From contig CAYUES010000002.1 in the NCBI GenBank assembly GCA_964443885.1, positions 1-48,586 of the forward strand: a stretch of 48,586 bases of DNA, read 5' to 3'. This DNA comes from an uncultured Pseudomonadales bacterium (GTDB lineage: Bacteria; Patescibacteriota; Microgenomatia; UBA1400; PJMF01). A model generated the notes under the pieces. The model saw only the letters and a program-made list of their open reading frames with translations, made no database searches and was not told the origin of the DNA. Both the position numbers and the translations under genes were made by a program. Each line of letters starts with the position of its first letter. Positions within the stretch are counted from its first letter, which is position 1. Shown here one piece after another: positions 20,909 through 47,868 of the stretch.

Positions 20909-22702
20909 TTACTTCGAAATCGCGGTAAGTGTCATCTGAAGTGCCGAGACGTCTTGGCGTAAATCGTCATTAAGAATTATTTCCTTTTCGATCTTTCTGA
21001 CAGCGTGTAAAACACTGGTGTGGTCGCGACTGGCAAACCAACGGCCAATTTCAGTCAATGGTAGTGAAAGCTCTTTTTTGAGTAGATACATCGCAATATG
21101 ACGCGCTGTAACAAGGTTTTTCAAACGACTCGAACCCTTTAGTGAGGACTGTTTGACGTGATAGTGATTGGCAACGGTTTTGAGGACGTCACCAGGCGAA
21201 ACTTTAATCCGTGGCCGCTTGACTTCAACCTCAACCTGGAGGATTTCTTCGATCAATTCTTGGTTCAATTCCTTCTTTTTGAGCTCAATTTCCGAGCGAA
21301 TACTGGTGATAATGCCTTCGATTTTGCGGGCACTATCGACTTTGGAAGCAACTATTTTGGCCAAATCGATAGTGATTGGAATTTGTTGCGCCTTGGCTTT
21401 GACCAAGACAATCGCGGTCCGCAGTTCAAACGAAGGTTGTTGAATATCGATCATTAAACCAGCCTCAAACCGAGATCGAAGTCTGTCTTCCAAAAGGGTG
21501 ATTTCATGGGGTGGCCGATCCGAAGTTAAGACGATTTGACTAAACTGTTTGGTGAGTGCATTGAAGGTATGAAAAAACTCTTCCTGGACCGCATTTTTGC
21601 CCGCAATGAACTGAATATCGTCGATCAGTAGCACATTGGCAGTGCGATATCGTTCTTTGAAGTGACTGGCTTTCTTAGTCTGGATAGCGTGGACGATGTC
21701 ATTTGTAAACTCTTCGCCAGTACAGTAGATGATCTTGGCGTTTGGATTGGCGCGCAAGATGTTATGACCAATCGCGTGCATCAAGTGGGTTTTGCCGACA
21801 CCCACCCCGCCATAGAAAAAGAGGGGATTGTAGGACTGGCCAGGTCTGTTGGAGACAGCGGTGGCGGCGGCGTGTGCCATTTCGTTGGTAGTAGAAACTG
21901 CAAAGGTGGCAAAAATGTAGTCGGTGCGCAGGCCAATCCCGCGCGCCTGCATCTGGTAACGTTCTTCTGCGGCATTGAGGATATTACTTTCAGAAAATAA
22001 ATCCTCCACTCGTGGTGACTGAGAACTTGGGTTTGCCCGTCCAGGCATTGGCGCCGCAAATGAAGTCATGTTTTGAGCCATCTCGTTGAGCGCCTGCTGG
22101 TTGCCACCGTTGGGGCGGCTCAGATTGGAGTCGCTAGAAGTTGGGTTTGAAGTTTGATTGGTGTTTTGGCTGGAGTTGGAACTAGAGTCGCGCTGGTTAG
22201 AACCCTGTGAGCGCATCACCTCACCACTGCCGTCAGTAAAGTTCTTGAGCGAAAAGCCTTCGAAGTTATTTTGTGATTGCGGTTGCTGCTGCTGCTCTTC
22301 TGGCAAATTCGAATTTTTGTTATAAGTATTTGCAGGTTGGCTTGAGGATTGGCCAAGTTGTGGCTGCATGACGTGGGCGAACCCCAACGGCTCTTTGTAG
22401 CGACTCGGCTTTGATTTGTGTGGATCGCCGACTTGATACTGAACTTCGCAGGTACGTTGTAAAACGGTGTCCAAGGCCTGCTTTACCTGGATATGAAGGT
22501 TCTTTTTTAGGTTTGTAGAGTGAAACGCAGTCGGACTAGTAATCGTGACGACCGCCCGCGCGTCATCGGGAAACCCAATCTCGGTAATTGGATTAGAAAG
22601 AATCCAGGTGTTGTAGACAGCAGGGCTCATGTTTTGCTGCAAAAGCCCACAATATTGTTGCCAAATCACTGAAACTTCTTGATGGGTGAGTGGTGTCTGC
22701 AT
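20909..22702 (-). CDS. dnaA: Chromosomal replication initiator DnaA, with a long Q/S/N-rich domain II linker
   Basis: The AAA+ Walker A motif is GGVGVGKTHL and Walker B is LLIDDIQF. The C-terminal DNA-binding domain is ARHIAMYLLKKELSLPLTEIGRWFASRDHTSVLHAVRKIE. The track start at 22720 is a TTG, so ATG 22702 (MQTPLTHQE) is preferred. Confidence 0.93.
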   Translation of the reverse strand: MQTPLTHQEVSVIWQQYCGLLQQNMSPAVYNTWILSNPITEIGFPDDARAVVTITSPTAFHSTNLKKNLHIQVKQALDTVLQRTCEVQYQVGDPHKSKPSRYKEPLGFAHVMQPQLGQSSSQPANTYNKNSNLPEEQQQQPQSQNNFEGFSLKNFTDGSGEVMRSQGSNQRDSSSNSSQNTNQTSNPTSSDSNLSRPNGGNQQALNEMAQNMTSFAAPMPGRANPSSQSPRVEDLFSESNILNAAEERYQMQARGIGLRTDYIFATFAVSTTNEMAHAAATAVSNRPGQSYNPLFFYGGVGVGKTHLMHAIGHNILRANPNAKIIYCTGEEFTNDIVHAIQTKKASHFKERYRTANVLLIDDIQFIAGKNAVQEEFFHTFNALTKQFSQIVLTSDRPPHEITLLEDRLRSRFEAGLMIDIQQPSFELRTAIVLVKAKAQQIPITIDLAKIVASKVDSARKIEGIITSIRSEIELKKKELNQELIEEILQVEVEVKRPRIKVSPGDVLKTVANHYHVKQSSLKGSSRLKNLVTARHIAMYLLKKELSLPLTEIGRWFASRDHTSVLHAVRKIEKEIILNDDLRQDVSALQMTLTAISK

Positions 22703-22813
22703 ACGTAAACTCCAGGCCAAAGCCTGTTTTAATCAATAAAAACTGATACAGAAAATAATAGTAAGGCACTGTAGTTATACACAGTGTTTTGCACACAATG
22801 CAAGCAGGAAAAG

Positions 22814-24985
22814 TTACTGTTGGACGATTCGGCTCGGTGGTTTGTAGTTATCAATTGAATCGGGTGTATAGGTGCGTCGTTCAGAATCTGCCAACGATTG
22901 GGTTGATCCAGGAACATTATTTGCTGCAGCAGGTTGTCCTGGAGTTGTTGGTGGTGCCGTGCCTAAGCCAGTTGGCGTTGCTTGATTGGTAGTTCCTGGT
23001 GTTTGTTGCTGTAAGCGCTGTTGTAATTGTGGCTGTCCACTCGGCATGCCAGGACGGGGTTGCGCAGTCTGTGGAGTTGCTCCTGGGCGTTGATTATAGC
23101 CAGAAGGTTGTGGCGGTTGGGCTTTTTGTAAGGCAGCATCAGCTTTAGCTTTTTCGGCAACTTTATTGCGACGGAAGACTTCTTCCGGATTAGTGGTGAT
23201 GAGCCCATGTTCTTCTTCACTCGCCACAACGCGCAGCGCCACGTGATTTTGTCCCGCAAAGAAAATTCCCTCTCCAACGTCAGCAGTCACGAGTAGTTGT
23301 CGTTCACCTTGAGAAAGATAAAATGTTTCGGCCAGAACTGGAATCGAAGCAGTTGATTGTTTCATCAAAAATTGAATTGAAGCGTTAGTCACGATTGCTT
23401 TTCCATAATCGGTATGCAAAAAGTCTTCAACGTCTTGGGTAATCGTGGTGATTCCTAAGTAGTACTTACGAGCGCGCTTGACCATCGAGAAAATAAACGA
23501 AGCAGAATCAGGATGCTTCATGAAGTACCAGGCCTCGTCGATAACCAAAATACGTTTTTTGAGATCTTTACGAATTCTAGTCCAGATAAAGTCCAAAATG
23601 ATGTACATGGCGATTGGCCGCATTTCATCTTCCATTTCTTTGACAGAAAAGACGGTCAGTTGGCTTTTGATATCGATGTTTGATTTTTGGTCGAAAATTC
23701 CGCGGAACGAACCAGTGATAAATTTTTCTAATCGAGCAGAAATGTCATCGGCGTCGTGATTTTCCATACCAATCAAGGCTTTGTAGACGTCTTCCATCAG
23801 CGGTGGTTCATTAACTTGGGTAGCTGGATCTGGCGTAATGCCCTTGGCTTTGTAAGCAGCCACCAGTGCGCGGTCGAGGAGTGCATCTTGTTGTGGAGTC
23901 ATCGTACCAAGCATTACTTTGAGCAAGCCGTGGAGTGAAATAATCTTTTGGCCAAGTTCGTTTTCACCTTCTTCGTATAAGTTGGCCAAGTCAAATGGAT
24001 TGATTTTGGTATCAGAGCCAAAGGTAAAGTTGATGTACTCACCACCAGCTGCCACAGTCAGATCTTCGTACTCATGCTCAGGATCCATGACGATCACTTC
24101 AGCCCCAAACATCATTTGGCGCAACACTTCGAGTTTAACGGTATACGATTTACCAGCACCAGACTTGGCAAAGATCACCATATTGGCATTTTCCATCTTG
24201 AAGCGGTCGAAGATCACCAGCGAGTCGTTGTGCTCATTAATGCCGTAGACGATACCGGTTTCCATGGTCAGTTCAGAAGAAGTAAACGGAAAGGTTGTCG
24301 CGAGCGAAGTGGTGTCCATGTTGCGCGTGACGAGGAGTTTGTCGGTGCCCATTGGCAGTGTCGTTTTGAAGCCTTCGTCCATCTGGAGAGTCGCTTTTTT
24401 GGAAACAATCAAGAGTGCTCCCAGTGTCGATTGAATACTCTTGGTAATCCGATCGAGTTCTTCTTTGTCTTTGGCTTGAATCGTAATGTACAACCCAAAC
24501 TGGAAAAACCGCTCCGAGCCTTTGGCTAGTTCTTCACGAATAAAGCGGGCATCTTCGAGCTTCACTTCAGTATTAATGTTAGAAATCTTGCCCGAGCGCA
24601 AATCTGACTGAATTTCAGCTTCCATTTCTGTAATCTTGCGCTTCAAGTTATCCAAGATCTCGGCTGAATCAACAGGAAAAACAAACATTGAAGTGGTAAT
24701 TTGGTGCGGATAGTTGATGAGTGGTGCCAACCAGTTGGCTGGTACGGTGCGGGGATAGCCGGCGATAAAAAGGGTGCGGGTGTAGGTCGAGTTTATTTTT
24801 TGATACGTAAAGTCAACTTCGATCGCTTCGGGCGCAATAATATCTTGGATCGTGACGAGACCGCGTGAAAACTGTTGGAGTTTTTCGAGGTTTTTTTGTT
24901 CTTGAACTTGCTCAGGAGTGAGCCCAGAATCTTTCTTTTTCTTGCCAAACGGTAAAGCTGGTAGGAGTGATGATAAATCAGGCAT
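22814..24985 (-). CDS. VirB4/TrbE/PrgJ-like type IV secretion ATPase with a Pro/Gln-rich C-terminal tail
   Basis: 723 aa. Walker A is AKSGAGKSYT and Walker B is RILVIDEAWYFM. The N-terminal region has a VirB4-type layout (IQDIIAPEAIEVDF...TRTLFIAGYPRTV). The last ~110 aa are low-complexity P/Q/T. Confidence 0.85.
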   Translation of the reverse strand: MPDLSSLLPALPFGKKKKDSGLTPEQVQEQKNLEKLQQFSRGLVTIQDIIAPEAIEVDFTYQKINSTYTRTLFIAGYPRTVPANWLAPLINYPHQITTSMFVFPVDSAEILDNLKRKITEMEAEIQSDLRSGKISNINTEVKLEDARFIREELAKGSERFFQFGLYITIQAKDKEELDRITKSIQSTLGALLIVSKKATLQMDEGFKTTLPMGTDKLLVTRNMDTTSLATTFPFTSSELTMETGIVYGINEHNDSLVIFDRFKMENANMVIFAKSGAGKSYTVKLEVLRQMMFGAEVIVMDPEHEYEDLTVAAGGEYINFTFGSDTKINPFDLANLYEEGENELGQKIISLHGLLKVMLGTMTPQQDALLDRALVAAYKAKGITPDPATQVNEPPLMEDVYKALIGMENHDADDISARLEKFITGSFRGIFDQKSNIDIKSQLTVFSVKEMEDEMRPIAMYIILDFIWTRIRKDLKKRILVIDEAWYFMKHPDSASFIFSMVKRARKYYLGITTITQDVEDFLHTDYGKAIVTNASIQFLMKQSTASIPVLAETFYLSQGERQLLVTADVGEGIFFAGQNHVALRVVASEEEHGLITTNPEEVFRRNKVAEKAKADAALQKAQPPQPSGYNQRPGATPQTAQPRPGMPSGQPQLQQRLQQQTPGTTNQATPTGLGTAPPTTPGQPAAANNVPGSTQSLADSERRTYTPDSIDNYKPPSRIVQQ

Positions 24986-24992
24986 TATTTGT

Positions 24993-24998
24993 ATTGTA
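24993..24998 (-). promoter_or_regulatory. -10 box TACAAT, 7 nt upstream of the VirB4-like ATG (leaderless-type)
   Basis: The minus strand reads AGTACAAT-ACAAATA-ATG. Confidence 0.45.
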
Positions 24999-25028
24999 CT
25001 GGTATTTTACCTCAGAGTAAAAGTGTGA

Positions 25029-25388
25029 TTAAAAACCGAGCGTCCTTCGAAAGATGTTAGTGTTTCTATTTACGGGCGCGCCATGTTTGTTTTTCTTTAA
25101 ATTTGTGGGTGAAAGTAGAATTTCAAAACGATTCGTTCTTCGAGTAGAAATTAAATCACCATCTAAATCATTGGCGCGGCGAGTCATCAATGAACTCATC
25201 CAAATAAAAACTAAAATGAAGATAGCGACGTTAAAGACAAGATACTCAGTTAAAAAGTATAATGGAAAAATTTCTGTAAAAGGCAATAAAAAGAGAATCA
25301 TCAATCCAATTCCAAACCAGTACTCTTGCCGACCAATTCTGCCAGAGTACAAACTTGAAAAAACTGATCGAGAAGGTGCTTCCTTCAT
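25029..25388 (-). CDS. DUF805-family small membrane protein
   Basis: 119 aa. GRIGRQEYWFGIGLMILF is the DUF805 hallmark, followed by further TM helices. Confidence 0.65.
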   Translation of the reverse strand: MKEAPSRSVFSSLYSGRIGRQEYWFGIGLMILFLLPFTEIFPLYFLTEYLVFNVAIFILVFIWMSSLMTRRANDLDGDLISTRRTNRFEILLSPTNLKKNKHGAPVNRNTNIFRRTLGF

Positions 25389-25428
25389 AAGTATCTAAAT
25401 AGTACTACCAAATTTTATTTGTAAGAGT

Positions 25429-26808
25429 TTAAATTTCTGGAAGTGGTGGTAAATCTGATGCAGGATCATTTTTTAATGCGGGGTTAATTTCACTCGTTGC
25501 TGTAGCTGGTTCAGTGGACAGAGACTGCAGTGTTGCATCCAACTCTTTTTGAATATCTGCTTCAGAAGGGGCTGGTGGAGCTGCTGATTCAGGTGGCATA
25601 GGCGGCATAGACGGAGTAACAGCGGGGGAAAAGCTAGGTGGTGCTACGGGAGCAACGGGCTCTGGTGGAGCTTCATAAGCAGCTGGAGGCGGAGTGGGAG
25701 GTGGTGCTTGTTGATAAACAGGAGTTTGCGCTACGGGTGGTTCGGGTACGGTATCAACTGCAGGCAGTGGACTGGAGTTACTAAGCTCACTTACTGTTTC
25801 TGGAGCAGCAATATGAATCTCGGGCACGGGCATTGTTTCAAAAGTATTATTTTCTACCGCTACAGTTTGGGTGTAGCTGGGTTCTGGTGGAGCCATATCT
25901 TGTTGCGGTGCTACGGGTGGTTCGGGTACGGTATCAACTGCAGGCAGTGGACTGGAGTTACTAAGCTCACTTACTGTTTCTGGAGCAGCAATATGAATCT
26001 CGGGCACGGGCATTGTTTCAAAAGTATTATTTTCTACCGCTACAGTTTGGGTGTAGCTGGGTTCTGGTGGAGCCATATCTTGTTGCGGTGCTACGGGTGG
26101 TTGAGTAGGAGCAGTATTCATAAATGTTTCCTGTATGCTTGCCTTAACAAGCGGTGTTGAGTAACTTGTACTTTCGCCAATTTGTTGGCCCTCGACTGCT
26201 TCTGGATTATAGCGAATATAGAAAAGTTGAATGATTTCTTGGGTGCTTAGCTGTCTGGAATACAAGCCAATCCGAGCAAACTGCGCAATCAAGTGATCAC
26301 GTTTCGGATCAAGAAGGTTTTGTGCTTTCTCAATAATCAGTGAACGCTCTACGGTGCTAATATCGAATTCTTTACTACCAGGTAAAATACTGGAAGTAGC
26401 CAAGAAACCCATTTCCAAAGCACTGGCGGGGATAACTACATAAAACTTTTTATCCAAAACATTGCGTTCATGAATCAAATTGCCCACAAACTCACGATAC
26501 ATGCGAATACGACGACGCAGTGTTTCTGTTTCAGCAATCAACTCTTGTTCTTGCAGAACTTTCAAGTAGGAAGTAACGTCTTTAGTCTGGGAGTGAATAA
26601 TAATTTGAACGGTGTAGTTGAGGGAGTTCAAGAGCCCTGCATATGCATACATAATCGCATCTTGCTCTTCTTCTGCTAGCAGTCCAAAGTTCATCGCATC
26701 AACGGTTAAGATCGTCGAAACAGTTCCATTCTTCATGATTACAAAGTTGTTTGTAATATCGTAGATATCCAGAAACTGCTGGGTGGTTGATTGGATAATA
26801 TCAGACAT
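25429..26808 (-). CDS. T4SS-associated protein: N-terminal domain resembling the non-ATPase N-domain of VirB4, a duplicated 60-aa unit and a Pro-rich tail
   Basis: 459 aa. The N-terminus TQQFLDIYDITNNFVIMKNGTVSTILTVDAMNFGLLAEEEQDAIMYAYAGLLNSLNYTVQIIIHSQ follows the VirB4 N-domain logic. No P-loop is present. Two identical 60-aa repeats are followed by a PPPTPPPAAYEAPPEP... tail. Confidence 0.55.
   Translation of the reverse strand: MSDIIQSTTQQFLDIYDITNNFVIMKNGTVSTILTVDAMNFGLLAEEEQDAIMYAYAGLLNSLNYTVQIIIHSQTKDVTSYLKVLQEQELIAETETLRRRIRMYREFVGNLIHERNVLDKKFYVVIPASALEMGFLATSSILPGSKEFDISTVERSLIIEKAQNLLDPKRDHLIAQFARIGLYSRQLSTQEIIQLFYIRYNPEAVEGQQIGESTSYSTPLVKASIQETFMNTAPTQPPVAPQQDMAPPEPSYTQTVAVENNTFETMPVPEIHIAAPETVSELSNSSPLPAVDTVPEPPVAPQQDMAPPEPSYTQTVAVENNTFETMPVPEIHIAAPETVSELSNSSPLPAVDTVPEPPVAQTPVYQQAPPPTPPPAAYEAPPEPVAPVAPPSFSPAVTPSMPPMPPESAAPPAPSEADIQKELDATLQSLSTEPATATSEINPALKNDPASDLPPLPEI
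25730..26102. repeat. Perfect 180-bp tandem direct duplication (2.07 copies) inside the 25429..26808 CDS
   Basis: 25741-25920 and 25921-26100 are identical base for base in the printed sequence. Identity extends 11 nt to the left and 2 nt to the right. Confidence 0.95.
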
Positions 26809-26814
26809 ATACGT

Positions 26815-26820
26815 ATTTTA
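26815..26820 (-). promoter_or_regulatory. -10 box TAAAAT, 6 nt upstream of the ATG at 26808 (leaderless-type)
   Basis: The minus strand reads GTAAAAT-ACGTAT-ATG. Confidence 0.4.
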
Positions 26821-26871
26821 CTCTCACTATGTATGGTACTGGCTTTTCTGCCTTGTCGCAAGCAGCCCAGT

Positions 26872-28065
26872 CTAATTACTTCGCACCTCAATTGGCTCTA
26901 CAATTTTGCCGGTTAATGTAATGGTTAATGGATGAAATTTAAAAGGATCTTTTTCAACTTCAACAATATAACTACCACTTTCAAGTGGCGTTGTAATGAA
27001 GAATTGACCTAACGCATTACTTTTCACTGCTCGAAGGACGTGTCCATCACTGGTTTTGATTTCAATAATTGCGCCGGGAATCAGCTCATCTTTGGGTGTG
27101 AGAATCATTCCCACCAGCTTATTGGGCGCAGTTGGCTTGCTTGGGAAGGGCAGAGCCGCATTAAATTGAGCGTCTTCTGAATTGGAGAAAGAATCACTCT
27201 TTGGTCCAGTTTGTTCAACAAAAGCGCGCTCTTGCGGAGTAATACTTTGTTGATGGACTAACGCTGCTACTTCTTCGACATCAATTCTATTGTCAACAGT
27301 AACCGGAGCATTCTCTGGGATCGACAGTCCTTGCGCAACCTCATTAGTATTAAGATAGGCATCTTTTTTATTTGTTTCGGTATGTTTATGCTCGGGATCA
27401 ATCACGTACGTTGAGTCCAGACTCTCTAAACCACCCAATGCATTACTGGCAATGCGTTCTTGTAGCACCGGATCCTCAGCAATCGTAGTTTGGCGCATGC
27501 TCCGAACCCGCACGGTAAGATTGGGTTTTTCTTTACTTTCGAGTTGCGGCTCAATTCTGAACTCTTGGACAACTTGGGTTTGAAAAATGTCTAAAATTGA
27601 AGACATACGCAGTCGCTCCTCTGGAGAAAAATCACTGTCATCTCCTTCTGGATTGGTAGAAGAAATAAACTCTTTTATCCGTTGTCGACGAGCTGGACTA
27701 AGATCGAGTTCTTGCAAGTCCAGAGTGTTTGCTTGATCACCTTTGAATAAAAAAGCAGGTGGAATGTTGTAGGCACGTTTCCAGAAAAACTGAGTTGGTT
27801 TATAGAGAATACCAATAAATGTAGAAATCCAGTGACTTAATGGACGTTCTTCAATTGGGATAAAAGCTGCCGCAAAGCCACCACCAGCAAACACAATCAT
27901 CAGCGGCCACTTCAATAGACCAATCAAGTTGGTTTGATAAATAGCTAAAGCAATTATTACGCCAACGGCCGCTTCGCCAAACTGCTTCAACGTCATACTA
28001 CCCACAATATGAAAGCGGTAGTTAGTAATGTCTTGGGGTATTGGATGTTCTTTCATGGTGGGCAA
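26872..28065 (-). CDS. PrgI/VirB3-like T4SS membrane protein fused to a long extension ending in a carboxypeptidase-regulatory-like beta-sandwich
   Basis: The N-terminus IPQDITNYRFHIVGSMTLKQFGEAAVGVIIALAIY plus a second TM helix (LMIVFAGGGFAAAFIPI..RPL) matches the PrgI-family pattern. The C-terminus is GMILTPKDELIPGAIIEIKTSDGHVLRAVKSNALGQFFITTPLESGSYIVEVEK. Confidence 0.6.
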   Translation of the reverse strand: MPTMKEHPIPQDITNYRFHIVGSMTLKQFGEAAVGVIIALAIYQTNLIGLLKWPLMIVFAGGGFAAAFIPIEERPLSHWISTFIGILYKPTQFFWKRAYNIPPAFLFKGDQANTLDLQELDLSPARRQRIKEFISSTNPEGDDSDFSPEERLRMSSILDIFQTQVVQEFRIEPQLESKEKPNLTVRVRSMRQTTIAEDPVLQERIASNALGGLESLDSTYVIDPEHKHTETNKKDAYLNTNEVAQGLSIPENAPVTVDNRIDVEEVAALVHQQSITPQERAFVEQTGPKSDSFSNSEDAQFNAALPFPSKPTAPNKLVGMILTPKDELIPGAIIEIKTSDGHVLRAVKSNALGQFFITTPLESGSYIVEVEKDPFKFHPLTITLTGKIVEPIEVRSN

Positions 28066-28101
28066 GGCCGAAGAATCAGGCTATTTCTAAGTAATAGTTT
28101 A

Positions 28102-29097
28102 TCATGGTTGCGGTTCTTGTGTCTGGACAGCTGGAGTGATTATTTCTGCAAAAAATTCCTGGTCCGCAGTATTTTTTAGTTGTCCGGCAAATCGATAGTA
28201 GGGAACAATTAGTTTTGTATCCGGGCTAACCCGATACTCAATAGTAACGGTATGCAAAGATCCTGACTGGATAGTATCCAGAGCTTCTGATTCAAAACCT
28301 TGATAGTGTGAACTAATAATCGTTGCCCGATCGTCATTAATGTTAGCTATGGCTTGAGGAATCGTCAATGTTTTAATCCTGCCAGAAACCGTTGGCGTTA
28401 GAAAAAATGGCTGAAAGACTGCTTTTTGTAGTTGGTTATCAGCATTAATCGTAATAGTTACTGGGTAGAGAACAGACCGTTCTAAGAGAACTGGATAGCC
28501 TTCTAAAGAATACCCAAACGGGATTTCCATAAGTCCCGCATCTGAAGCCTCGACGATATCACCATGCACATCTGCTTCACGGTATACAATTTTATTGGTG
28601 AGAATTTGTAAATTATTTTCTGGAAAAACTGAATTGAGAAACTCGGTGGCGACTTGTTGCGCGCGGAGACTGTCTACCAACTTACCAGTGGGCAGTGGTA
28701 CGAGTGTGGAGAGCTCATAGCTGCCGGTAGCTTCAATTACCTGAAGTGCGTAGGATGGACTCATCCACAAAGTAGGAACTTCAGGATGGAGTTGGAGGTT
28801 GTAGCGTTCAATAATTTTTTGCTTGGTACTGCGATCTTCAAAATCAAACGGCGCAAAGTTTTCAGCCGTGGCTACTGCCAACTCATTGGGTATCGAAGGC
28901 GCATTCCCAATAAACGTTATTGCCTCAAAACTTGAAAGGGTCCCTTTATAGTTTGTTTCCAAGGTGGGTTGGAGTGCAACTTGAGTGGGTGTTAGTAATC
29001 TAAACAAATAGCCTGCTCCTAATAAAACTGCCGCAATAATCAAGGTTACTCGAAACCATTGAACGGTAGCTTGTTTTGTTTGTTCTGCTTCTTGCAT
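28102..29097 (-). CDS. Membrane-anchored extracytoplasmic protein of the T4SS-like operon (function unknown)
   Basis: Start chosen at ATG 29097 (MQEAEQTK...). An AAGAGGA Shine-Dalgarno sequence lies 7 nt upstream, directly after the upstream stop. There is a single TM helix, VTLIIAAVLLGAGYLF. Confidence 0.5.
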   Translation of the reverse strand: MQEAEQTKQATVQWFRVTLIIAAVLLGAGYLFRLLTPTQVALQPTLETNYKGTLSSFEAITFIGNAPSIPNELAVATAENFAPFDFEDRSTKQKIIERYNLQLHPEVPTLWMSPSYALQVIEATGSYELSTLVPLPTGKLVDSLRAQQVATEFLNSVFPENNLQILTNKIVYREADVHGDIVEASDAGLMEIPFGYSLEGYPVLLERSVLYPVTITINADNQLQKAVFQPFFLTPTVSGRIKTLTIPQAIANINDDRATIISSHYQGFESEALDTIQSGSLHTVTIEYRVSPDTKLIVPYYRFAGQLKNTADQEFFAEIITPAVQTQEPQP

Positions 29098-29108
29098 AAT
29101 AAATCCTC

Positions 29109-29441
29109 TTACGGTCTTCCACAACTTCTGGTTGGTGTGCCTACATTTGCTGTAAAGCCATTTGGAACGATATTGCGAATACCCAAACCAGGATCATCAG
29201 GAGCATTTCGTTGATTTATTAATTCATAGTGTAAGTGGGGACCAGTACTATTGCCAGTACTTCCTACATAGCCAATTACCTCTCCAGCGGCCGCGCCCAC
29301 GCCACTTTTACCTTTAAACTTCGGTGCTACGCCACTTAAATGAGCAAAGAAAACGGTATGCTTAGTCGCATCTCCGGGTATTTGAAACTCCAAAGCCATC
29401 AAGTTTCCATACCCGGTGGTGTCCCAACCGCGATCCAGGAA
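29109..29441 (-). CDS. Second half of an M23 (LytM) peptidase domain, in a different reading frame from the 1568-aa ORF (frameshifted continuation)
   Basis: The frame of track ORF 29109..29576 encodes GWDTTGYGNLMALEF...FFAHLS...GEVIGYVGSTGNSTGPHLHYELI, which are the M23 GYGN and HxH motifs. The matching HxxxD motif lies at the end of the 29362..34068 ORF. Confidence 0.6.
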   Translation of the reverse strand, partial: FLDRGWDTTGYGNLMALEFQIPGDATKHTVFFAHLSGVAPKFKGKSGVGAAAGEVIGYVGSTGNSTGPHLHYELINQRNAPDDPGLGIRNIVPNGFTANVGTPTRSCGRP

Positions 29442-32400
29442 ATGGTGCATAAATCGGTGTTCCAATTGGGGCGCCAATATCCCAAGCATCGGTTTTAGCA
29501 TGAGTTGGAATGCCAACATGAAACGGCCGAGTGGTAACAACACCAGTTGTAGGCCAGCAACCAATTTTTGGTTCACCCACCATCACACTGGCCGAGGCAT
29601 TGAAGGTTTGATTACTTTCTAAAACATTTCCCGACGCATCCATCACATCAAAGGTAACCGTGAAGGTATTCGTAATAAACGCATTTTGGAAGCCGTTACC
29701 GATTGAAACGGTATACACCATTGGTGCACTGGCAGCTTGGAGTGGATCAAGAGGAATTTGCGTAATATCAAACGTAGATTGTAGTTGGGTTGTCGCATCA
29801 CCAAAACTAGAAAACTGATCAGTGGCTTCAGTAATCTTGAGAGAGTAGCCAGGCTTGGGGGTAATCACAATCGTATAGGTAATATCTGTTGCGGTGTTGT
29901 TACGAATTTCATTGGGTACCGCACCTTTATCAGCTGTTTTAGTAACAGTCACATACTTGGAAGTTGCTTGTTGCCCCGCAGCAGTATAGCTTTGTCCGGT
30001 GGCGGGCTTGGTCGGAAGGGGAACTAAGAATGATCCAGCAATAACGACAATCGTAAGAATGGTTAAGATGAAAATTGGCGCAAGTGCGAAGAGTGGTGCT
30101 ACCAAGCCAATTGCAGCTGTAGAAAGCAAGCCAAACCCTGTGGACGCAGTGGCGGTTGTAGAGGCTGGAGAAGAGAAGACGCTACTGCCGCCGCTTGAAG
30201 CATTGTTTGAGGGAGTGCCACCCGTGGTAGTACTCTGCGCCGCCGTTGGGGCAGTTTGTGGTGGTGGTGAAGTAGCAGCGTCCGTGGCAGCAGCTTCCGC
30301 TTGACCCTCCGCGGCTTGCTGGGCAGCTGCTGAGTTAGTCGGCGAGGTAGCTTGTGCGTTGGCTGCACGCATATCACTCATGCTTGAGTAGCCACTAGCA
30401 GGATTTTCAGAGCCAGTAAAACCAAAAGGATTGGGAGGAACTCTGGTTGGCAACCAGTTTGCCCATGGCATCACCGCACTCGCTCCGAGGGCGAGCGGCA
30501 TTCCCATCAGGAGTCCTAGTGGACCACCTAGCATAAACGAAGCCGCCATGGTAATGAGTCCTGCGGCATTACCGAATGCGTAGAGGAAGACTGATGCTGC
30601 CATACTGGCGGCAGTACTGCCACCAATGATAAGGATTTGCCGCAACTGGCGATTTTGTGCTGCAAACTTTAAAACCTCGAGGGCTTTTACGGTCCAGCCA
30701 ACAGGTCCTGAAGCAGCAGCTACGCCCAGGCTAGCGGCGGCGCTTGCAGCCCCTGTGCTTGTAATAGAACTCAAGATTTTGTTTTTAACTGCCCCAGAAG
30801 CCATTTGCTTTAATGCATCAACTCGATTTGAAGAAGGAATAGCAGTATTTGCTCTACTAGACCCAGATACATTCGGATCTTCTTCAACAAATTGCTCTGT
30901 TTGAAAGGCGGGTTCAGCTAATCCAGCTTGTATCACTGAGTTGTTTAAGGCTTCGGTTGCTGGAGCATCCAAAACCATTGCCTCATCTGCAGCAGCAGCT
31001 GCTTGAATAAGTATGTTCTCAAGCTCTGCAACTTCGACTGCCATTTGTGCGGCAATTTGTGTTTTTTCTGCTTGGGTAAATGCTAAAAAGTTGGCTAAGG
31101 CAATTCTATTTTCCAAGCGTTTTGCGGCGACAGCTTGCTCATAGAACTTACTAGTCGGCGTCGGTTGAGATGCTGTCAACTCTCTTTGTTTACCAAAGTC
31201 GAGGATTTTGTAGTTGCCACGGTCAGCGGCGATAGTGAGCTCGTCGATATCTCCAGTAAACCCTAAAAACTGAACCTGAACTGGTAGTAAATTTTTGTCG
31301 ATTAATGGGTCGGTATTTTTGCTTTGTAATCGATTGCGCAAACTTACATCAAATGGAATGTCAGCGTAGATATAAAAGGCCGCTCGTTGTTCGACGGTTA
31401 GCGGAGCCCACCCGCTATTAGCAACTAGCTTCAGTGTATCAATCTTTGCTCTTAATTTTCTTCCATTAAGTGCAGATGCAGTTTGCTCAGTGCCCTCTTC
31501 GGAAATAGTCTTTGCCATGTCTCCAACTGGCGAGACGTGTTTTGCTAAGCTAGCTATATCGGTGGGAATTTCTTTTGGCGCGGGTAAGAAACCAGTCGTG
31601 ATTGCTCCGTCAGCAGGTGCGAGATTACTTGCCCGCACTCGAGCATAGTTGATTAAAATTTCTCTGACTGTTTGATGATTTTGAGAGTTAACTTCATTAG
31701 TGGGTAAGTCAAACATCAAGCCCAGTAAGCGCGTATCAAGCTTTTCCACCATGTTGGTGGTGCCTTCTGGACCAAACGTGAGAAGTAGTGAGTCAAGAAT
31801 ATCGCTAGTTTTCTTGAGTACAACCGGAGAATCATCTTTGAGTTCAGTACGCAGCTGATCTATAAACAAACTCTGTGCATCAACGTGTTTGATGTCTTCC
31901 AAGATGAACCTAATTTGGCCTTCATCGTATGAAATTTTATAGTGAGACGTGTTTTTAAGTGTAGTTTCCAAACCTTGTTGTTCTGAAGTCAAACCTTTTT
32001 TCTGATAGTAGATCAGTACTTCACCGTAGAACTGGCTGAGTTCGCGTTTAAATGCGGGATCAGCATTCAACGATTTAGTAATTTGCTCAAAAACCTGAGC
32101 ACGTTTTGCGGGGTCAGTGTAGAGTTCCAAAAGTTCTTGATTGGAAAGTTGTAGAAAATAAGCATAGATCTTTGCTTCCAATAGCTGCTCAGCTTCTAAG
32201 TATTCTTTTTCCAATACGGAATCAGTCGTTACTAGACTTGCATCAATGTTGTGTGAGGTGAAAAATTCATAGTTGGCATTTTCCAAAGCCCAAGCTGTTT
32301 CAACCTCAATTCGCTCGACACGATTAATGATCGGTATTGTATTGGCTACTCTGTAGGCTTGATACCCAGGAGTTGCCTGCATTCGCAGTGAGAGATTTTT

Positions 32401-34068
32401 AATATGACGAATCAAACTGCTCGGTGACTTAGAAAGTTTGTGTAGTTCCTGTGGTGATAAATTACTCAAGTACTCAATGGTTGCGGTGTTAACTTGCTCA
32501 AATAACTGTGGCGGAATTGTGTTGTTGCGCAGTGACTCTTCAGGGAAAAGCTGCGCCATCGTACCCCAAATAACATGCCCAACTTGCTTGGGGAGGACTG
32601 CTTGCTCGTTGGTTGAGAGTGCTTGCCCCGCCGCACCAGCAGCTGTGTATGCACCCATCACTCGCTGCATATCTGCAGCGGTTGGCATGATCGGTGGAGT
32701 TACAAATTCAGCAGCAGTGAGCTCGGCAGGTTCACCAGCTACTTGATCAGTCTGAACTTCAGAACTGGGTTGTTGCTGTGGTTGTTCGCTCTTTACTTGC
32801 TGATCAGCGTCTTGCTGCAATGGACCGAATTTCTGACTAAGTTGTTTTGCCCATGTACTTAATTTTGCATGAGCAGGGGAGAGTTCTGGGTTTTTTGTAA
32901 CAGTAAGAATATAGTTGTTGACAACCGCGATGGTTCTTTCTGCATCTTCAGTTAGTTGAGACTGTATTAAAAAATCGATGTTCCCTTCAAATAATTCTTG
33001 ATATCGCAGCAAAAATCCATTTTCAGCATGCGCAAAAAGACGATTGAGTAGTTTGTAATACAGTTTTTCACGCCCTACAAGCGAGCCAGCTCCAGATGTA
33101 AAGCCAGATACTAATTGTATTAGTTCTCGTTCAGAAAGTTCAGAAACTAGTACATCAAGTTCACTACGAATTATTGAAAGTAATTCTTCGTGTATTGCTT
33201 GCAACTCCGGAGGAAATGCACTTAGTTGTAGTTTCGATTGATTAAATAATAAATCGACTAAATTTACTTTTGCAAAGTAAAAAACGAACTCCTTTTGTTT
33301 TTGAAGTTCTAGGCGAGTCTTAGAGTCACGTAAATCTACCCAATCATCATCTTCATCAGCTACTTCTGGTTCGGACTCTTCATCCTGTGAGTCTGACGAA
33401 GAGTCTCCCGCTATAGGTGCAACCTTGGCTGTGGAAGTATCAGAAGGAATTGTACTCGGGTTATTTTCTGCAATTACTGCTTTATTTCCACTAGTCTCCC
33501 AAGCAGCAAAAGCTAATTGAATGTTTTCAATTAGTTTTTCAATTTCGATGACTTCATATTGAAGTTTATCTTGTGAAATGAGCGCTTCATCACCGGTACT
33601 TCCCCACTCGCGTAACTTAAGTGCGGGATCATATTCTGAGTGATACTCAGTTAAATAGGCCGTGGGGTAGTACTCTTGCAACTTAGTTGCAATTCCAATT
33701 AAAATGGCAACAAAGTCTACAAAAAACAAATACGTACTTTGCTTGCCTTTTACTGCTTCGTCACTGGGCTGGCCGTCATACGTTTCAAGTGTTTGATCGG
33801 TAATACTTAGTGCCGCAGTACGTTCTTGAAACCGTAAAATTACTTTTTGATTACGATGGAGTTTGAGAATTCGGTTTGCTTCGGTTTTTTCTCTGGCATC
33901 AATCAATGCATAAAAGACAGACTCGAGATACTCGAGTTCACTGGGTCCGTAAAAACCAAGCTGTTTGATGTTCGAAAGTTTAACGGGGTGTAGGTCTTGA
34001 TTGGTTGTTAGACCACTCTGATAAACCACCGTTTGCTGGTTTTCTGCTGGTTTCGTCTCGTCTGCCAT
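29362..34068 (-). CDS. Giant T4SS-associated membrane protein (about 1060-aa cytoplasmic region, TM bundle, S/T/A-rich linker, Ig-like module, start of an M23 peptidase domain)
   Basis: 1568-aa ORF. The TM-rich block is GWTVKALEVLKFAAQNRQLRQILIIGGSTAASMAASVFLYAFGNAAGLITMAASFMLGGPLGLLMG. A second TM is LVAPLFALAPIFILTILTIVVIAGSF. The C-terminus is IPTHAKTDAWDIGAPIGTPIYAPFPG, the first half of an M23 domain with the HxxxD motif. Confidence 0.7.
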   Translation of the reverse strand: MADETKPAENQQTVVYQSGLTTNQDLHPVKLSNIKQLGFYGPSELEYLESVFYALIDAREKTEANRILKLHRNQKVILRFQERTAALSITDQTLETYDGQPSDEAVKGKQSTYLFFVDFVAILIGIATKLQEYYPTAYLTEYHSEYDPALKLREWGSTGDEALISQDKLQYEVIEIEKLIENIQLAFAAWETSGNKAVIAENNPSTIPSDTSTAKVAPIAGDSSSDSQDEESEPEVADEDDDWVDLRDSKTRLELQKQKEFVFYFAKVNLVDLLFNQSKLQLSAFPPELQAIHEELLSIIRSELDVLVSELSERELIQLVSGFTSGAGSLVGREKLYYKLLNRLFAHAENGFLLRYQELFEGNIDFLIQSQLTEDAERTIAVVNNYILTVTKNPELSPAHAKLSTWAKQLSQKFGPLQQDADQQVKSEQPQQQPSSEVQTDQVAGEPAELTAAEFVTPPIMPTAADMQRVMGAYTAAGAAGQALSTNEQAVLPKQVGHVIWGTMAQLFPEESLRNNTIPPQLFEQVNTATIEYLSNLSPQELHKLSKSPSSLIRHIKNLSLRMQATPGYQAYRVANTIPIINRVERIEVETAWALENANYEFFTSHNIDASLVTTDSVLEKEYLEAEQLLEAKIYAYFLQLSNQELLELYTDPAKRAQVFEQITKSLNADPAFKRELSQFYGEVLIYYQKKGLTSEQQGLETTLKNTSHYKISYDEGQIRFILEDIKHVDAQSLFIDQLRTELKDDSPVVLKKTSDILDSLLLTFGPEGTTNMVEKLDTRLLGLMFDLPTNEVNSQNHQTVREILINYARVRASNLAPADGAITTGFLPAPKEIPTDIASLAKHVSPVGDMAKTISEEGTEQTASALNGRKLRAKIDTLKLVANSGWAPLTVEQRAAFYIYADIPFDVSLRNRLQSKNTDPLIDKNLLPVQVQFLGFTGDIDELTIAADRGNYKILDFGKQRELTASQPTPTSKFYEQAVAAKRLENRIALANFLAFTQAEKTQIAAQMAVEVAELENILIQAAAAADEAMVLDAPATEALNNSVIQAGLAEPAFQTEQFVEEDPNVSGSSRANTAIPSSNRVDALKQMASGAVKNKILSSITSTGAASAAASLGVAAASGPVGWTVKALEVLKFAAQNRQLRQILIIGGSTAASMAASVFLYAFGNAAGLITMAASFMLGGPLGLLMGMPLALGASAVMPWANWLPTRVPPNPFGFTGSENPASGYSSMSDMRAANAQATSPTNSAAAQQAAEGQAEAAATDAATSPPPQTAPTAAQSTTTGGTPSNNASSGGSSVFSSPASTTATASTGFGLLSTAAIGLVAPLFALAPIFILTILTIVVIAGSFLVPLPTKPATGQSYTAAGQQATSKYVTVTKTADKGAVPNEIRNNTATDITYTIVITPKPGYSLKITEATDQFSSFGDATTQLQSTFDITQIPLDPLQAASAPMVYTVSIGNGFQNAFITNTFTVTFDVMDASGNVLESNQTFNASASVMVGEPKIGCWPTTGVVTTRPFHVGIPTHAKTDAWDIGAPIGTPIYAPFPGSRLGHHRVWKLDGFGVSNTRRCD

Positions 34069-34075
34069 GGAATTA

Positions 34076-34081
34076 ATTATA
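34076..34081 (-). promoter_or_regulatory. -10 box TATAAT, 7 nt upstream of the giant gene's ATG (leaderless-type)
   Basis: The minus strand reads GGTATAAT-TAATTCC-ATG(34068). Confidence 0.5.
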
Positions 34082-34143
34082 CCTGGTTCTCTGCTTTTGT
34101 GGGGCAGGGAAGTACTGGTGCAACCGGGTAAATTATGGGTGTT

Positions 34144-35148: not shown

Positions 35149-35159
35149 TACTTCTTTCG

Positions 35160-35534: not shown

Positions 35535-35553
35535 CTCAATAATTTCTTAAAAA

Positions 35554-36798: not shown

Positions 36799-36893
36799 AC
36801 TTACTAATCTTTCATACTTTAGTAAAAAAGTATACAGTTATTATATAAAGTAATAGATTGTGTTGAGAGATTCTTTTTTAAGAGGAAAAGTAG

Positions 36894-36899
36894 TATAAT
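36894..36899 (+). promoter_or_regulatory. -10 box TATAAT, 8 nt upstream of the ATG at 36908 (leaderless-type)
   Basis: TAGTATAAT-tccgctgt-ATG. Confidence 0.45.
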
Positions 36900-36907
36900 T
36901 CCGCTGT

Positions 36908-40672: not shown

Positions 40673-42535
40673 CTAGCCGTAGCCAGTTCGTTTAGTAACA
40701 TCTGGAGCTGGGGTATTACTGACATTTTCACCGGTCTCAGCTTTCTGAGCGTCAGCATAGCCCTCCATACCTTTTCCAAGTTCATTAGTTTGGCGATTAG
40801 CTTCTCTAAATTCAAACTTGGCAATTTGATCACCAAATAAGTATCTTGTAGCAGCTTGTGCTGATTGATTGATCGCTGTTTTTCCAACTTTCATAGCAAA
40901 TCCTGGAGCGCGAGGTACTACTACTGGAGCGAGGGCACCCGCAATTGCGCCTCTTCTTATGCCTTCTCCAACTGGTCTACCAGTGAGTGCATTAAATCCT
41001 CCGTACATCATACCACCAATACCGCCACCTGTCGCCATAGCAGCTCCAGTAGTTAAGTTGCGGCCATTAATAAGTCCAGATCCTGGCACAGCCTTGTCAC
41101 CTCTCCATCCAGATTGTAGGCCTTTCCAAGCAAATCCAGCGAGCATTGAGCCGAGTCCACCATCACCAGCGCCAGCTGCTTTCTTAACTTCTTTGACGAT
41201 GTCTGGTAATCCTAAGATAATTGCCAAGCCCAAGAGGGGGCCGATTAGGTTCGCAGCACTGCCATTGCCCAACAAGAAGGGTGGCATAAATCCACCTTCA
41301 GCACCACCAGATACTGTGACACTGCTGCCAGCTTGACCAGTAAACTCAATGTAAATAATGAGCATCAATAATACTGTCGGGAAGGCGAGTAGGTTGCCGA
41401 TAATACCTTTGAGCCAAGGCCAAAACACGTCTTTGCCAGGAATTGCACCAAACATAAGGATCAATGGACTAGCTACCACGTACAAAATAATTGCCGCGTA
41501 TGACTTCAATAACTCGAAGAAAAGTCTAACTGCACCAATCAAAACAGCAACCGTCAGTACCATCGTTAGTGTTAAACCACCAATAATGCCAGTTAAGTAG
41601 GTTCCAATGTTTGCAGAATCAGCTGCAGCTTCCAGAATTTCTGTTACCAAGTTGATATTCATACCAGCAGCGCCAGTACTCATATTAGCCTTAAAAAGGA
41701 AGCCAATTAAGTTTAAGATACTAAAGTTAATGATGTTGCCGCCAGTAAGCGTGTCGCCAGACATAAGGTTGAAACTAATGCCATCAAACAATCCAATAAT
41801 TAAGAACATTAATACATACATCATGTCGATCATGAAGCCAGCAATTGCATAGGAAAAGGTAACAAGAATCAAACTAATTATTACTGACGGAATGGCTTGT
41901 TGCGCAGTAACAGCTGCCTGTCCACCCAAGCGTTTACGTAACATGATCATAAAGCCAATTACTACGAAAATAATAATAAAGAAGAAGTAGGCAACATTGC
42001 GGAAGACTTTCCAAAGATTAAGAATTGGATCAAGTGAAGCAAAGCCCAATCCTTGTGCATAGGCAGGCTGGACAAATCCAGCTGTGTTGATGACATCGGC
42101 CACATAGGTGCCGGTGTGAGCGGCGGGATGTTCGTACATAAAAGCACTCAAATTAAGCACACCCGCGAAGATGCCACCTGATCTGCCACTGTCTGATCCT
42201 TCAGGTGTTGCGCCACCACTCCCACTAGGATCTGGAACTGCACCCCCGCCACCGCCAGGAGTACCTTGTTCACCATAGGCGATATCCATCGCCCATTCCA
42301 TGGCAGCAAAACGTGTAGTGTATTTAACTAAACATTCCAAAGAAGGAGTATCACAGTTTTTAGTTGCTTCTCGGTATTGATCAAACTCAGTTTGAGAAAA
42401 TCGGTAGCTATAGCCATTGGAGTCGGTAGTGGTAAATGTATCATCAGCCGGATCTGCTGGGCTCGTTTGTGCAGCTACAACAGAAGTACTCAGAATGAAA
42501 AAAGAAAGCACTAGGAGTACAACCCGTTTGAACAT
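40673..42535 (-). CDS. VirB6/TrbL-like polytopic T4SS membrane protein with a signal peptide and a Gly-rich C-terminal region
   Basis: Start chosen at ATG 42535 (MFKRVVLLVLSFFILSTSVVAAQ). There are at least 6 TM helices (for example VAYFFFIIIFVVIGFMIML and IISLILVTFSYAIAGFMIDMMYVLMFLIIGLF). The C-terminus is Gly-rich. The assignment rests on architecture and context only. Confidence 0.5.
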   Translation of the reverse strand: MFKRVVLLVLSFFILSTSVVAAQTSPADPADDTFTTTDSNGYSYRFSQTEFDQYREATKNCDTPSLECLVKYTTRFAAMEWAMDIAYGEQGTPGGGGGAVPDPSGSGGATPEGSDSGRSGGIFAGVLNLSAFMYEHPAAHTGTYVADVINTAGFVQPAYAQGLGFASLDPILNLWKVFRNVAYFFFIIIFVVIGFMIMLRKRLGGQAAVTAQQAIPSVIISLILVTFSYAIAGFMIDMMYVLMFLIIGLFDGISFNLMSGDTLTGGNIINFSILNLIGFLFKANMSTGAAGMNINLVTEILEAAADSANIGTYLTGIIGGLTLTMVLTVAVLIGAVRLFFELLKSYAAIILYVVASPLILMFGAIPGKDVFWPWLKGIIGNLLAFPTVLLMLIIYIEFTGQAGSSVTVSGGAEGGFMPPFLLGNGSAANLIGPLLGLAIILGLPDIVKEVKKAAGAGDGGLGSMLAGFAWKGLQSGWRGDKAVPGSGLINGRNLTTGAAMATGGGIGGMMYGGFNALTGRPVGEGIRRGAIAGALAPVVVPRAPGFAMKVGKTAINQSAQAATRYLFGDQIAKFEFREANRQTNELGKGMEGYADAQKAETGENVSNTPAPDVTKRTGYG

Positions 42536-42542
42536 GGTATAT

Positions 42543-42548
42543 AGTATA
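42543..42548 (-). promoter_or_regulatory. -10 box TATACT (TGGTATACT), 7 nt upstream of the ATG at 42535 (leaderless-type)
   Basis: The minus strand reads TTGGTATACT-ATATACC-ATG. Confidence 0.45.
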
Positions 42549-42684
42549 CCAAAACTCTGACATAAAGGGTAAAGTAAGTAGTTGATTTTGAGCAAAAAAA
42601 TATTTTGAATATAGACAACGATTAGTATAGTGTGATAACAAATAGTAATACTTATATTGTTTGCGCGTATGCGGAATTACTTAT

Positions 42685-43605
42685 ATGATTGATGATAACC
42701 TTTCAAGTCAGGTACAACACTTAGTTGATTCTGCGACAACAATTTTTATTATTTTTCCGAGTATTGCATCGGCTGATCACTTGGCAGTGGCGGCAAGTTT
42801 ATACCTGAGTCTCGTGCGTGCACAAAAATCAGTCGGCCTTGTTACCACAGATACAGCCGCAGTTCTGCAAAACGAGGGGAGTACTATTATCGGACTTGAA
42901 AACACCCAACAAGACTTGGGAAATCAAAACTTGAGTATTAGTTTTCCGTACTCGCCGGATCAAGTTGACAAAGTTAGTTATCATGTTGGCGAAGAAACAA
43001 ACAGATTTTTTCTCTCGATCAAGCCAAAAACCGGTTTTCCACCGCTTGATGCCAGCAATGTTGAGTTTTCCTACACCGGCGCATCAGCGGATCTAGTGTT
43101 TCTAATTGGAGTAAAAGATTTAGAAAGTTTAGAGCAATTATACTTTGGTTATGAACAACTGTATCAAGACACGCCAAGTATTTCGGTAAATTCGTACGCG
43201 ACATCTTTTGGCACAGTTAAGATTGATAGTGGCAGTGCGAGTTCCAGTAGCGAAGTGATTGCTCAATTGTTGCCAATCCTAAGTTTGCCAATTGAAAGCG
43301 ATACCGCCACCAACTTACTGTATGGAATTGAATCTAGCACAAAAAATCTCTCTTCACCTACGACTTCAGCAGAAACTTTTGAAGCAGTAGCCCAGTTGTT
43401 GCGAGCTGGTGCCCGTCGAAGTTTCAAACGCAGCTCTGCAGAACCACACCCAAAAGAAGCCTTCAAAGAGTCAATCGTCCATGAAGTTCCAGAATCTGAA
43501 GCTACAAAACGAAAAAATGGCAAAGCTAAAACACCAAAACTAGAAAGTTCCAAAAAAGATTCGATGCTGCCACCAGCAGACTTTACGCCAACAAAGCGAA
43601 TTTAA
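42685..43605 (+). CDS. Hypothetical protein, possibly a degenerate DHH-family-like fold
   Basis: ATTIFIIFPSIASADHLAVAASLYLSLVRAQKSVGLV and ADLVFLIGVKDLESLEQL resemble NrnA-type motif I/III positions, but the canonical DHH/DxD residues are not evident. The track start at 42661 is a TTG. Confidence 0.35.
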   Translation: MIDDNLSSQVQHLVDSATTIFIIFPSIASADHLAVAASLYLSLVRAQKSVGLVTTDTAAVLQNEGSTIIGLENTQQDLGNQNLSISFPYSPDQVDKVSYHVGEETNRFFLSIKPKTGFPPLDASNVEFSYTGASADLVFLIGVKDLESLEQLYFGYEQLYQDTPSISVNSYATSFGTVKIDSGSASSSSEVIAQLLPILSLPIESDTATNLLYGIESSTKNLSSPTTSAETFEAVAQLLRAGARRSFKRSSAEPHPKEAFKESIVHEVPESEATKRKNGKAKTPKLESSKKDSMLPPADFTPTKRI

Positions 43606-43610
43606 TTTTT

Positions 43611-47270: not shown

Positions 47271-47277
47271 ACCTTGT

Positions 47278-47837: not shown

Positions 47838-47845
47838 AACGATAT

Positions 47846-47851: not shown

Positions 47852-47868
47852 GCTGAATTAGCTCTTTT

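Follow-up and report, generated by a model that had tools for sequence, protein, structure and literature searches.

What does a gene cluster that resembles the core of a conjugation apparatus do when it lies beside dnaA on a bacterial chromosome, with no relaxase, coupling protein or integrase in its vicinity? The question is raised by contig CAYUES010000002.1 (assembly GCA_964443885.1), deposited as an uncultured Pseudomonadales bacterium and placed by GTDB in the Patescibacteriota (Microgenomatia). The whole stretch analysed, 48,586 nucleotides, is referred to here as the window. An initial annotation, made from the sequence without database searches, described a monoderm-type type IV secretion system (T4SS) encoded on the chromosome of a candidate phyla radiation genome. 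This description was upheld in the current study by the component families and by synteny. The locus is very probably a patescibacterial chromosomal T4SS, descended from the MPF-FATA systems, that serves the exchange of macromolecules between an epibiont and its host rather than the transfer of a mobile element. We infer this function from the genes described below together with work on cultivated relatives.

The gene cluster beside dnaA

Seven open reading frames (ORFs) occupy positions 22814–34068, all on the minus strand and in one direction, with gaps of 36–63 nt or overlaps between them; the spacing looks operon-like. The ORFs and coordinates given for this region in the initial annotation were borne out by the ORF check. 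Together with dnaA, the features are the following (TM, transmembrane).

20909..22720, minus strand: dnaA (TIGR00362, 432 bits), downstream of virB4
22814..24985, minus strand: VirB4-type ATPase of the CD1110/MPF-FATA type, 723 aa (NCBIfam, Pfam, PrgJ alignment)
25029..25388, minus strand: DUF805-like protein with two TM segments, 119 aa (DUF805 profile, TM prediction)
25429..26808, minus strand: TrsD-like protein, 459 aa (NCBIfam TrsD and VirB4_plasma matches)
26872..28065, minus strand: PrgI/VirB3-like protein with two TM segments, 397 aa (Pfam PrgI, orthologue family)
28102..29124, minus strand: bitopic membrane protein with a predicted YycH-like extracytoplasmic part, 340 aa (AlphaFold2 model, Foldseek)
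29109..34068, minus strand: giant membrane protein with a C-terminal M23 domain, split into the ORFs 29362–34068 and 29109–29576

The VirB4 protein scores 377 bits against the NCBIfam model conju_CD1110 (cutoff 325), matches Pfam P-loop_TraG (E 6.6e-22) as well as AAA_10 and CagE_TrbE_VirB; its C-terminal tail is rich in Pro and Gln. The sequence shows Walker A as AKSGAGKS and Walker B as VIDEAW. It is 24% identical to PrgJ of pCF10 (E 6e-38); the alignment begins at PrgJ residue 222 and extends to residue 772, and the protein therefore lacks the usual N-terminal domain of ~220 aa. To judge by profile matches, that domain is encoded apart, by the 459-aa TrsD/TraD-like gene. The 459-aa protein matches both NCBIfam TrsD (E 2.5e-6) and, at positions 103–236, the mycoplasma VirB4 model VirB4_plasma (E 8.6e-7), and in a set of 30 orthologues the TrsD match recurs in 29 and the VirB4_plasma match in all. 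The first reading of the two proteins, as a VirB4 ATPase and an ATPase-less relative of the VirB4 N-terminal domain, thus holds on both counts.

The 397-aa protein scores 23.4 bits against Pfam PrgI over its full length, which is below the cutoff, and 27.0 bits, equal to the cutoff, over its N-terminal 110 aa. The PrgI match recurs in every one of the 30 orthologues (best E 2.4e-9), and on these two results the PrgI/VirB3-like assignment made earlier can be retained. A TM hairpin is predicted at residues 33–65, and in 29 of the 30 orthologues the C-terminal part is a CarboxypepD_reg-like beta-sandwich.

Relatives were drawn from a scan of species-representative genomes as the best 80 genome loci by VirB4, and gene counts are given over 81 loci. 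VirB4 identity to these 80 relatives is 68–88%. The names on record are those of Patescibacteria, Pacebacteria, Woesebacteria or Microgenomates bins, barring titles that appear to be mislabelled, and one ‘Candidatus Pacebacteria’ record is filed by NCBI under the phylum Minisyncoccota. The comparison of synteny, which the initial annotation had proposed, reveals a conserved order: giant M23 protein, 340-aa protein, PrgI, TrsD, VirB4, dnaA, dnaN, yidC, jag, rnhA, DUF4012. VirB4 is present in all 81 loci, DnaA in 77, TrsD in 75, PrgI in 71, DnaN in 70, the 340-aa protein in 44 and the giant protein in 40; virB4 and dnaA are neighbours in 77, and TrsD adjoins VirB4 in 75. Because this gene order recurs in related patescibacterial loci, the locus is a vertically inherited chromosomal system and not an integrative and conjugative element (ICE) or other mobile element.

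A number of metagenome-assembled genome records (L003, L004, L008, L059 and others) are titled Pseudomonadales, Limisphaerales or TM6; their genes and synteny are patescibacterial, and the names are probably mislabelled.

Between the virB4 stop codon and the start of dnaA there are 93 bp, in keeping with the earlier statement that the module abuts this gene, and beyond dnaA the window contains dnaN, rnpA, yidC, jag and rnhA. In the 270-bp spacer between dnaA and dnaN (20639–20908) there are eight DnaA-box-like 9-mers, against about one expected per 300 bp. By this sequence criterion the spacer is the best oriC candidate, and the label ‘origin-adjacent’ is reasonable because the density of DnaA boxes here is the highest in the window. 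GC skew was dropped as a marker of the origin, as it merely tracks gene orientation. The GC content of the module is unremarkable, being that of its surroundings, and promoter and terminator scans gave counts below the shuffled expectation.

If oriC does lie at 20639–20908, dnaA and the T4SS operon (22814–36798) run towards the origin, head-on to the replication fork. The genes virB4, dnaA and dnaN are on one strand in most of the related loci (DnaA 77/81, DnaN 70/81). DnaA in the window has 603 aa and contains a low-complexity linker of ~150 aa, rich in Gln, Asn and Ser, between its N-terminal and ATPase domains.

Further components and the second half of the locus

The 340-aa protein is the one that the initial annotation called a membrane-anchored extracytoplasmic protein. 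It consists of an N-terminal TM helix followed by a multi-domain extracytoplasmic part, and is thus bitopic; it is kept at the same position in 44 of the 81 loci. Sequence searches of Pfam and the PDB gave no match for it, even with a profile of 41 sequences. Word-indexed protein searches returned nine sequences in all. An AlphaFold2 model built from a seven-sequence alignment was too poor to use (pLDDT 49.6), and the fold search made with it was disregarded. The model from the nine sequences (pLDDT 76.8, pTM 0.65) gave Foldseek matches in the PDB to 5coz (E 2e-7) and to the YycH structures 9a5d_B (E 4e-6) and 2fgt (E 8.5e-5); no VirB8, TcpC, PrgL or TraM structure was among these results. A VirB8/NTF2-like fold, envisaged for this protein at the outset, was therefore not borne out, and the modelled fold indicates a YycH-like rather than a VirB8-like protein. 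YycH, a regulator of WalK in Bacillus subtilis (2fgt, 9a5d), and 5coz share with the model an N-terminal TM helix followed by external domains of helices and sheet. The 340-aa protein differs from YycH in having no sequence similarity to it, no WalK/WalR genes nearby and a T4SS operon as its setting. Alignment by hhalign of the families against single proteins of pCF10 and pCW3 (TcpC, PrgL, PrgH and PrgI) was negative, including that of the 340-aa family against TcpC and PrgL; as the control, PrgI against the PrgI family, was also missed, the method had no power here.

The initial annotation confined the module to 22814–34068. More components were found at 40673–48586, 6.6–14.5 kb further along the same strand, and these form the second half of the system.

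40673..42595, minus strand: polytopic membrane protein in the VirB6 position, 640 aa (TM prediction, synteny)
42661..43605, plus strand: 314-aa protein between the 640-aa and 1219-aa genes, no Pfam match
43611..47270, minus strand: secreted or anchored protein with an SLT-like C terminus, 1219 aa (N-terminal signal or TM segment predicted)
47355..47837, minus strand: VirB2-like pilin, first paralogue (signal peptide and two TM segments; PF18895)
47869..48408, minus strand: VirB2-like pilin, second paralogue (PF18895, E 1.5e-3)

The first pilin scores 24.4 bits (E 3e-5) against PF18895 (T4SS_pilin), for which the cutoff is 26.6, and both copies in the window are below that cutoff; the family as a whole matches in 44 of 44 sampled members (best E 4.3e-15). 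Relatives carry arrays of up to seven paralogues (loci L085, L086, L102 and L116), and the array in the window probably runs on past its end, 48408–48586 being the last stretch.

The 640-aa protein, with a predicted signal peptide and at least six predicted TM segments, belongs to a family of 3263 representative clusters. Pfam, profile, BLASTP and tblastn searches revealed no sequence link to VirB6, TrbL, PrgH or TcpH, and a PDB sequence search with the family profile returned nothing. The gene neighbourhood was examined in 38 independent metagenome loci, each of at least 12 kb. Pilin genes lie upstream of the 640-aa gene in 30 of them, and downstream are PrgI (17/38), TrsD (10/38) and VirB4 (8/38). 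Some of these loci are compact, with pilins, the 640-aa gene, PrgI, TrsD and VirB4 within ~11–14 kb. The protein thus takes the VirB6 position in the locus and is a candidate for the channel.

In the same set of loci, the 314-aa gene adjoins the 640-aa homologue, on the opposite strand, in 19 of 38, and the 1219-aa gene is flanked by the pilins and the 640-aa gene in 13. The C terminus of the 1219-aa protein contains an AHSES...GVFQF motif that reaches 13 bits (E 0.075) with the Pfam SLT profile and falls short of the cutoff, and a PDB sequence search with the protein gave no match. A role like that of VirB1 is possible, which would make this protein a second hydrolase of the cell wall.

In this lineage, the two halves of the locus are separated by an EamA transporter gene, a flavokinase gene and two large orphan ORFs. 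The orphans, of 414 aa (minus strand) and 1212 aa (plus strand), lie at 35554–40546; they have no Pfam match and almost no counterparts in the related loci, and a PDB sequence search with the 1212-aa protein found nothing. Possible explanations are cargo specific to this lineage and insertions unrelated to the system.

Two regions on the other side of dnaA are recorded here for completeness. Downstream of rnhA, 13939–17013 encodes a 1024-aa DUF4012 membrane protein that is kept in 58 of the 81 related loci and belongs to the same long co-directional block as the T4SS and dnaA genes. At 4718–7907, two camelysin/TasA-like (Peptidase_M73) genes, two SipW-like S26 signal peptidase genes and a 193-aa ORF lie in a row, which suggests a surface-fibre module of the TasA/SipW type.

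The frameshifted hydrolase and the missing conjugation genes

The giant protein was described initially as a membrane protein ending in an M23 domain, with a frameshifted continuation, and this is confirmed. Its 1568-aa ORF comprises ~1100 soluble N-terminal residues followed by an extracytoplasmic C-terminal part, with three TM segments (predicted spans 1145–1188 and 1326–1344). Only the first part of the M23 domain lies in this ORF, with HxxxD (H-AKT-D) and GTPIYAPFPG; the remainder (GYGN...HLH) is in the 155-aa ORF in the +1 frame, at 29109–29576, which by itself matches M23 with E 3.2e-10. Both zinc-binding motifs, HxxxD and HxH, are encoded, but in separate frames. When the frames are joined, M23 scores 52.6 bits over profile positions 4–93 of 96. 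The junction lies near 29433, outside any homopolymer run. Because all 24 relatives with an M23 match have the domain in a single open frame, the interruption is specific to this assembly or strain. Of these 24, 19 are not truncated at the edge of a contig, and they are 1111–1629 aa long. An exact-product look-up of the 1568-aa ORF gave no record, and no independent assembly over the frameshift was found; the other contig of the same organism (L001) runs only from the end of the DUF805-like gene to dnaN. A PDB sequence search with the giant protein also returned nothing.

Only the window and the L001 contig contain the DUF805-like gene, and the other TrsD–VirB4 loci have no insert at this point. 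Because it is confined to this organism, it is a recent lineage-specific insertion between trsD and virB4. Two TM segments are predicted in its 119-aa product; the family assignment is borderline, with 24.9 bits against a DUF805 cutoff of 25.7. A separate peculiarity of the neighbouring trsD-like gene is an exact 180-nt tandem duplication (25730–26089, copies 100% identical) within the long Pro-rich C-terminal tail, which arose either recently or as an artefact of assembly.

Both the frameshift in the hydrolase gene and the foreign gene between trsD and virB4 might be taken as signs of decay, and with relaxase, coupling protein and integrase missing the locus could then be a non-functional remnant of an integrated conjugative element. 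We regard this as extremely unlikely. The remaining genes are all intact, and the hydrolase is uninterrupted in the M23-bearing relatives. VirB4 identity is 68–88% over 80 species-level genomes with strongly conserved synteny, and a homologous system is essential in a cultivated relative (see below).

The statement that the window contains no coupling protein, relaxase, integrase or flanking repeats withstood each of the searches. Pfam scans of all large ORFs in the window detected no coupling protein (VirD4, TraG or FtsK-type), relaxase or integrase. By tblastn, PcfC, PcfG, TcpA, TcpB, TcpM and the Tn916 integrase gave no match, either in the window or across the 2.36 Mb of 160 related loci, and PrgJ, used as a positive control, matched 89 sequences. 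No oriT is evident either, though no direct search for it was made. No att-like repeats flank the module, repeats being short and at chance level. These absences, taken with the conserved housekeeping synteny, agree with the earlier view that this is not a conventional conjugative element, and the ICE reading was rejected on the same grounds.

The locus could nevertheless work in conjugation, transferring the chromosome or an element by means of a relaxase and a coupling protein encoded elsewhere in the genome. The machinery does derive from monoderm conjugation systems, and the inspected DNA amounts to 48.6 kb of the genome. A survey of 3,035 patescibacterial genomes found VirD4-like genes in 2,918 of them, mostly distant from virB4 (Quiñonero-Coronel et al., 2025; PMC12102498). 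Relaxases, however, were found in only 103 of the 3,035 (PMC12102498), and in Southlakia epibionticum the distant VirD4 homologue is non-essential, whereas the T4SS genes are essential. In addition, neither gene is detected in the window or the 160 related loci, and the locus is fixed beside dnaA in dozens of species. Conjugation with genes supplied from elsewhere is, on this balance, highly unlikely.

Function and comparison with known systems

Work on cultivated relatives points to a different use of such a machine. Epibiotic growth of S. epibionticum requires the T4SS cluster SEML1_0006–0019, which resembles Gram-positive conjugation systems, includes essential pilins and has no recognisable coupling or relaxase proteins (Wang et al., 2023; PMC10633639). 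The survey of Quiñonero-Coronel et al. places the Patescibacteria VirB4 clade inside MPF-FATA, identifies TrsD as the commonest partner of VirB4, and reports PrgI/VirB3 and arrays of VirB2 near virB4. In the same survey dnaA, dnaN and rnpA are frequent neighbours of virB4, with proximity to dnaA/dnaN in Microgenomatia, where VirB6 and VirB8 are seldom detected (PMC12102498). In a 2025 review the patescibacterial systems figure as some of the latest to join the T4SS superfamily (PMC12857230).

In the proposed mechanism, the TrsD N-domain and the VirB4 ATPase core, together a split VirB4, would form a motor at the cytoplasmic membrane with the PrgI/VirB3-like protein as its anchor, and the 640-aa polytopic protein would form the channel. 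The M23 protein, and possibly the SLT-type hydrolase, would open the cell wall; for the giant M23 protein we infer that this is the wall of the epibiont itself or that of the host. VirB2-like pilins would build an external filament that touches the host. The resulting pilus or channel across the monoderm envelope would move protein or nucleic acid through contact between epibiont and host, so that the machine serves exchange with the host cell rather than its own mobilisation.

The main alternative is that the direction is inward: an import machine comparable to archaeal Ced or Helicobacter ComB, which takes up DNA, RNA or nucleotides from the host. The VirB4 protein matches CedB (57 bits) and CedD (24 bits) weakly, Patescibacteria are without nucleotide synthesis, and no coupling protein is present. 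According to a 2026 preprint, a cultivated relative feeds on host RNA and has tubular structures that are possibly T4SS pili. The CedB score, however, is far below the cutoff of 700, and further Ced or ComB components were not found. Loss of ComEC in S. epibionticum ended competence but not viability, and because viability was spared the published results do not tie the essentiality of the T4SS to ComEC-dependent DNA uptake. Import is thus unlikely, although less so than conjugation or decay.

The known systems closest to the locus are the S. epibionticum T4SS and those of the Patescibacteria VirB4 clade; most ultrasmall Patescibacteria have such a chromosomal cluster beside dnaA. All are chromosomal, dnaA-proximal and of the monoderm type; VirB4, TrsD, PrgI/VirB3, wall hydrolases and a divergent array of VirB2-like pilins are common to them, in a cluster without relaxase or coupling protein. 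The differences from S. epibionticum lie partly in the host lineage, which is Microgenomates/Pacebacteria-like here and Saccharibacteria there, and partly in the layout, the present locus being in two parts split by the transporter, the flavokinase and the two large orphans. The hydrolase here is a membrane protein of ~1650 aa with an M23 domain and a frameshifted gene, PrgI carries a beta-sandwich extension, and no similarity to VirB6 can be detected in the 640-aa protein that takes its position. Where a VirB8-like protein might be expected, there is a single-pass protein resembling YycH.

Amongst plasmid systems, the Trs system of pGO1/pSK41 and the Tra system of pIP501 (MPF-FATA, TrsD/TraD) likewise encode a separate TrsD/TraD beside VirB4 and have a monoderm architecture with no outer-membrane core. 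They differ in being plasmid-borne, in having a relaxase, a VirD4-type coupling protein and oriT, and in being without VirB2 pilins. With Prg/Pcf of pCF10 and with CTn2 the locus shares the CD1110-family VirB4 described above. A PrgI-family gene likewise lies two genes upstream of virB4, or three in this genome owing to the DUF805-like insert, with trsD between. As in pCF10, where it is PrgK, a large cell-wall hydrolase is encoded in the operon. Homologues of PrgH, PrgL, PrgK, PcfC and PcfG were not detected by tblastn, however. In contrast to pCF10, VirB4 is split, with the N-domain supplied by TrsD, and the hydrolase is of the M23 rather than the lysozyme/CHAP type.

Several points weigh against the exchange function as proposed. 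The functional argument is borrowed from Saccharibacteria and not from Microgenomatia. No VirB8-like protein was found, and the VirB6 and VirB1 roles were assigned solely from topology, a weak motif and synteny, with no sequence or fold match. The inspected DNA is confined to 48.6 kb, and a VirD4-like gene is likely to be present elsewhere in the genome because most patescibacterial genomes are reported to have such genes, far from virB4 (PMC12102498); a relaxase may also be encoded elsewhere. The frameshift in the M23 domain may mean that at least this component is inactive in this genome, or may be an assembly error.

A bolder reading would make the Microgenomates-type T4SS a distinct subtype, with stand-ins not homologous to VirB6, VirB8 and VirB1: the 640-aa family, the YycH-fold protein and the ~1650-aa M23 protein, respectively. 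In this scheme, the ~1100-aa cytoplasmic region of the giant protein might serve as a substrate receptor instead of a coupling protein, the giant orphan proteins might be cargo, and the machine would extract or exchange host macromolecules, for example RNA. We consider this doubtful, to about the same degree as the import machine.

The novelty of the locus was estimated too highly at first. The finding and its interpretation were already published in 2023–2025: the lack of a relaxase, the proximity to dnaA, the MPF-FATA ancestry and the set of TrsD, PrgI and pilins (PMC12102498), and the essentiality (PMC10633639). What is added here is limited to the extended boundaries, the family in the VirB6 position, the YycH-like fold and the frameshift. 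The window introduces no new principle; it is a clean example of the Microgenomates type with a full parts list. It also supplies leads, namely a candidate for VirB6, which is scarce in this class according to the 2025 survey, a YycH-fold protein at the place where VirB8 might be looked for, and a fusion of PrgI with a beta-sandwich. These are putative parts of a machine that, in Patescibacteria, is thought to be central to the life of ultrasmall bacteria on other cells.

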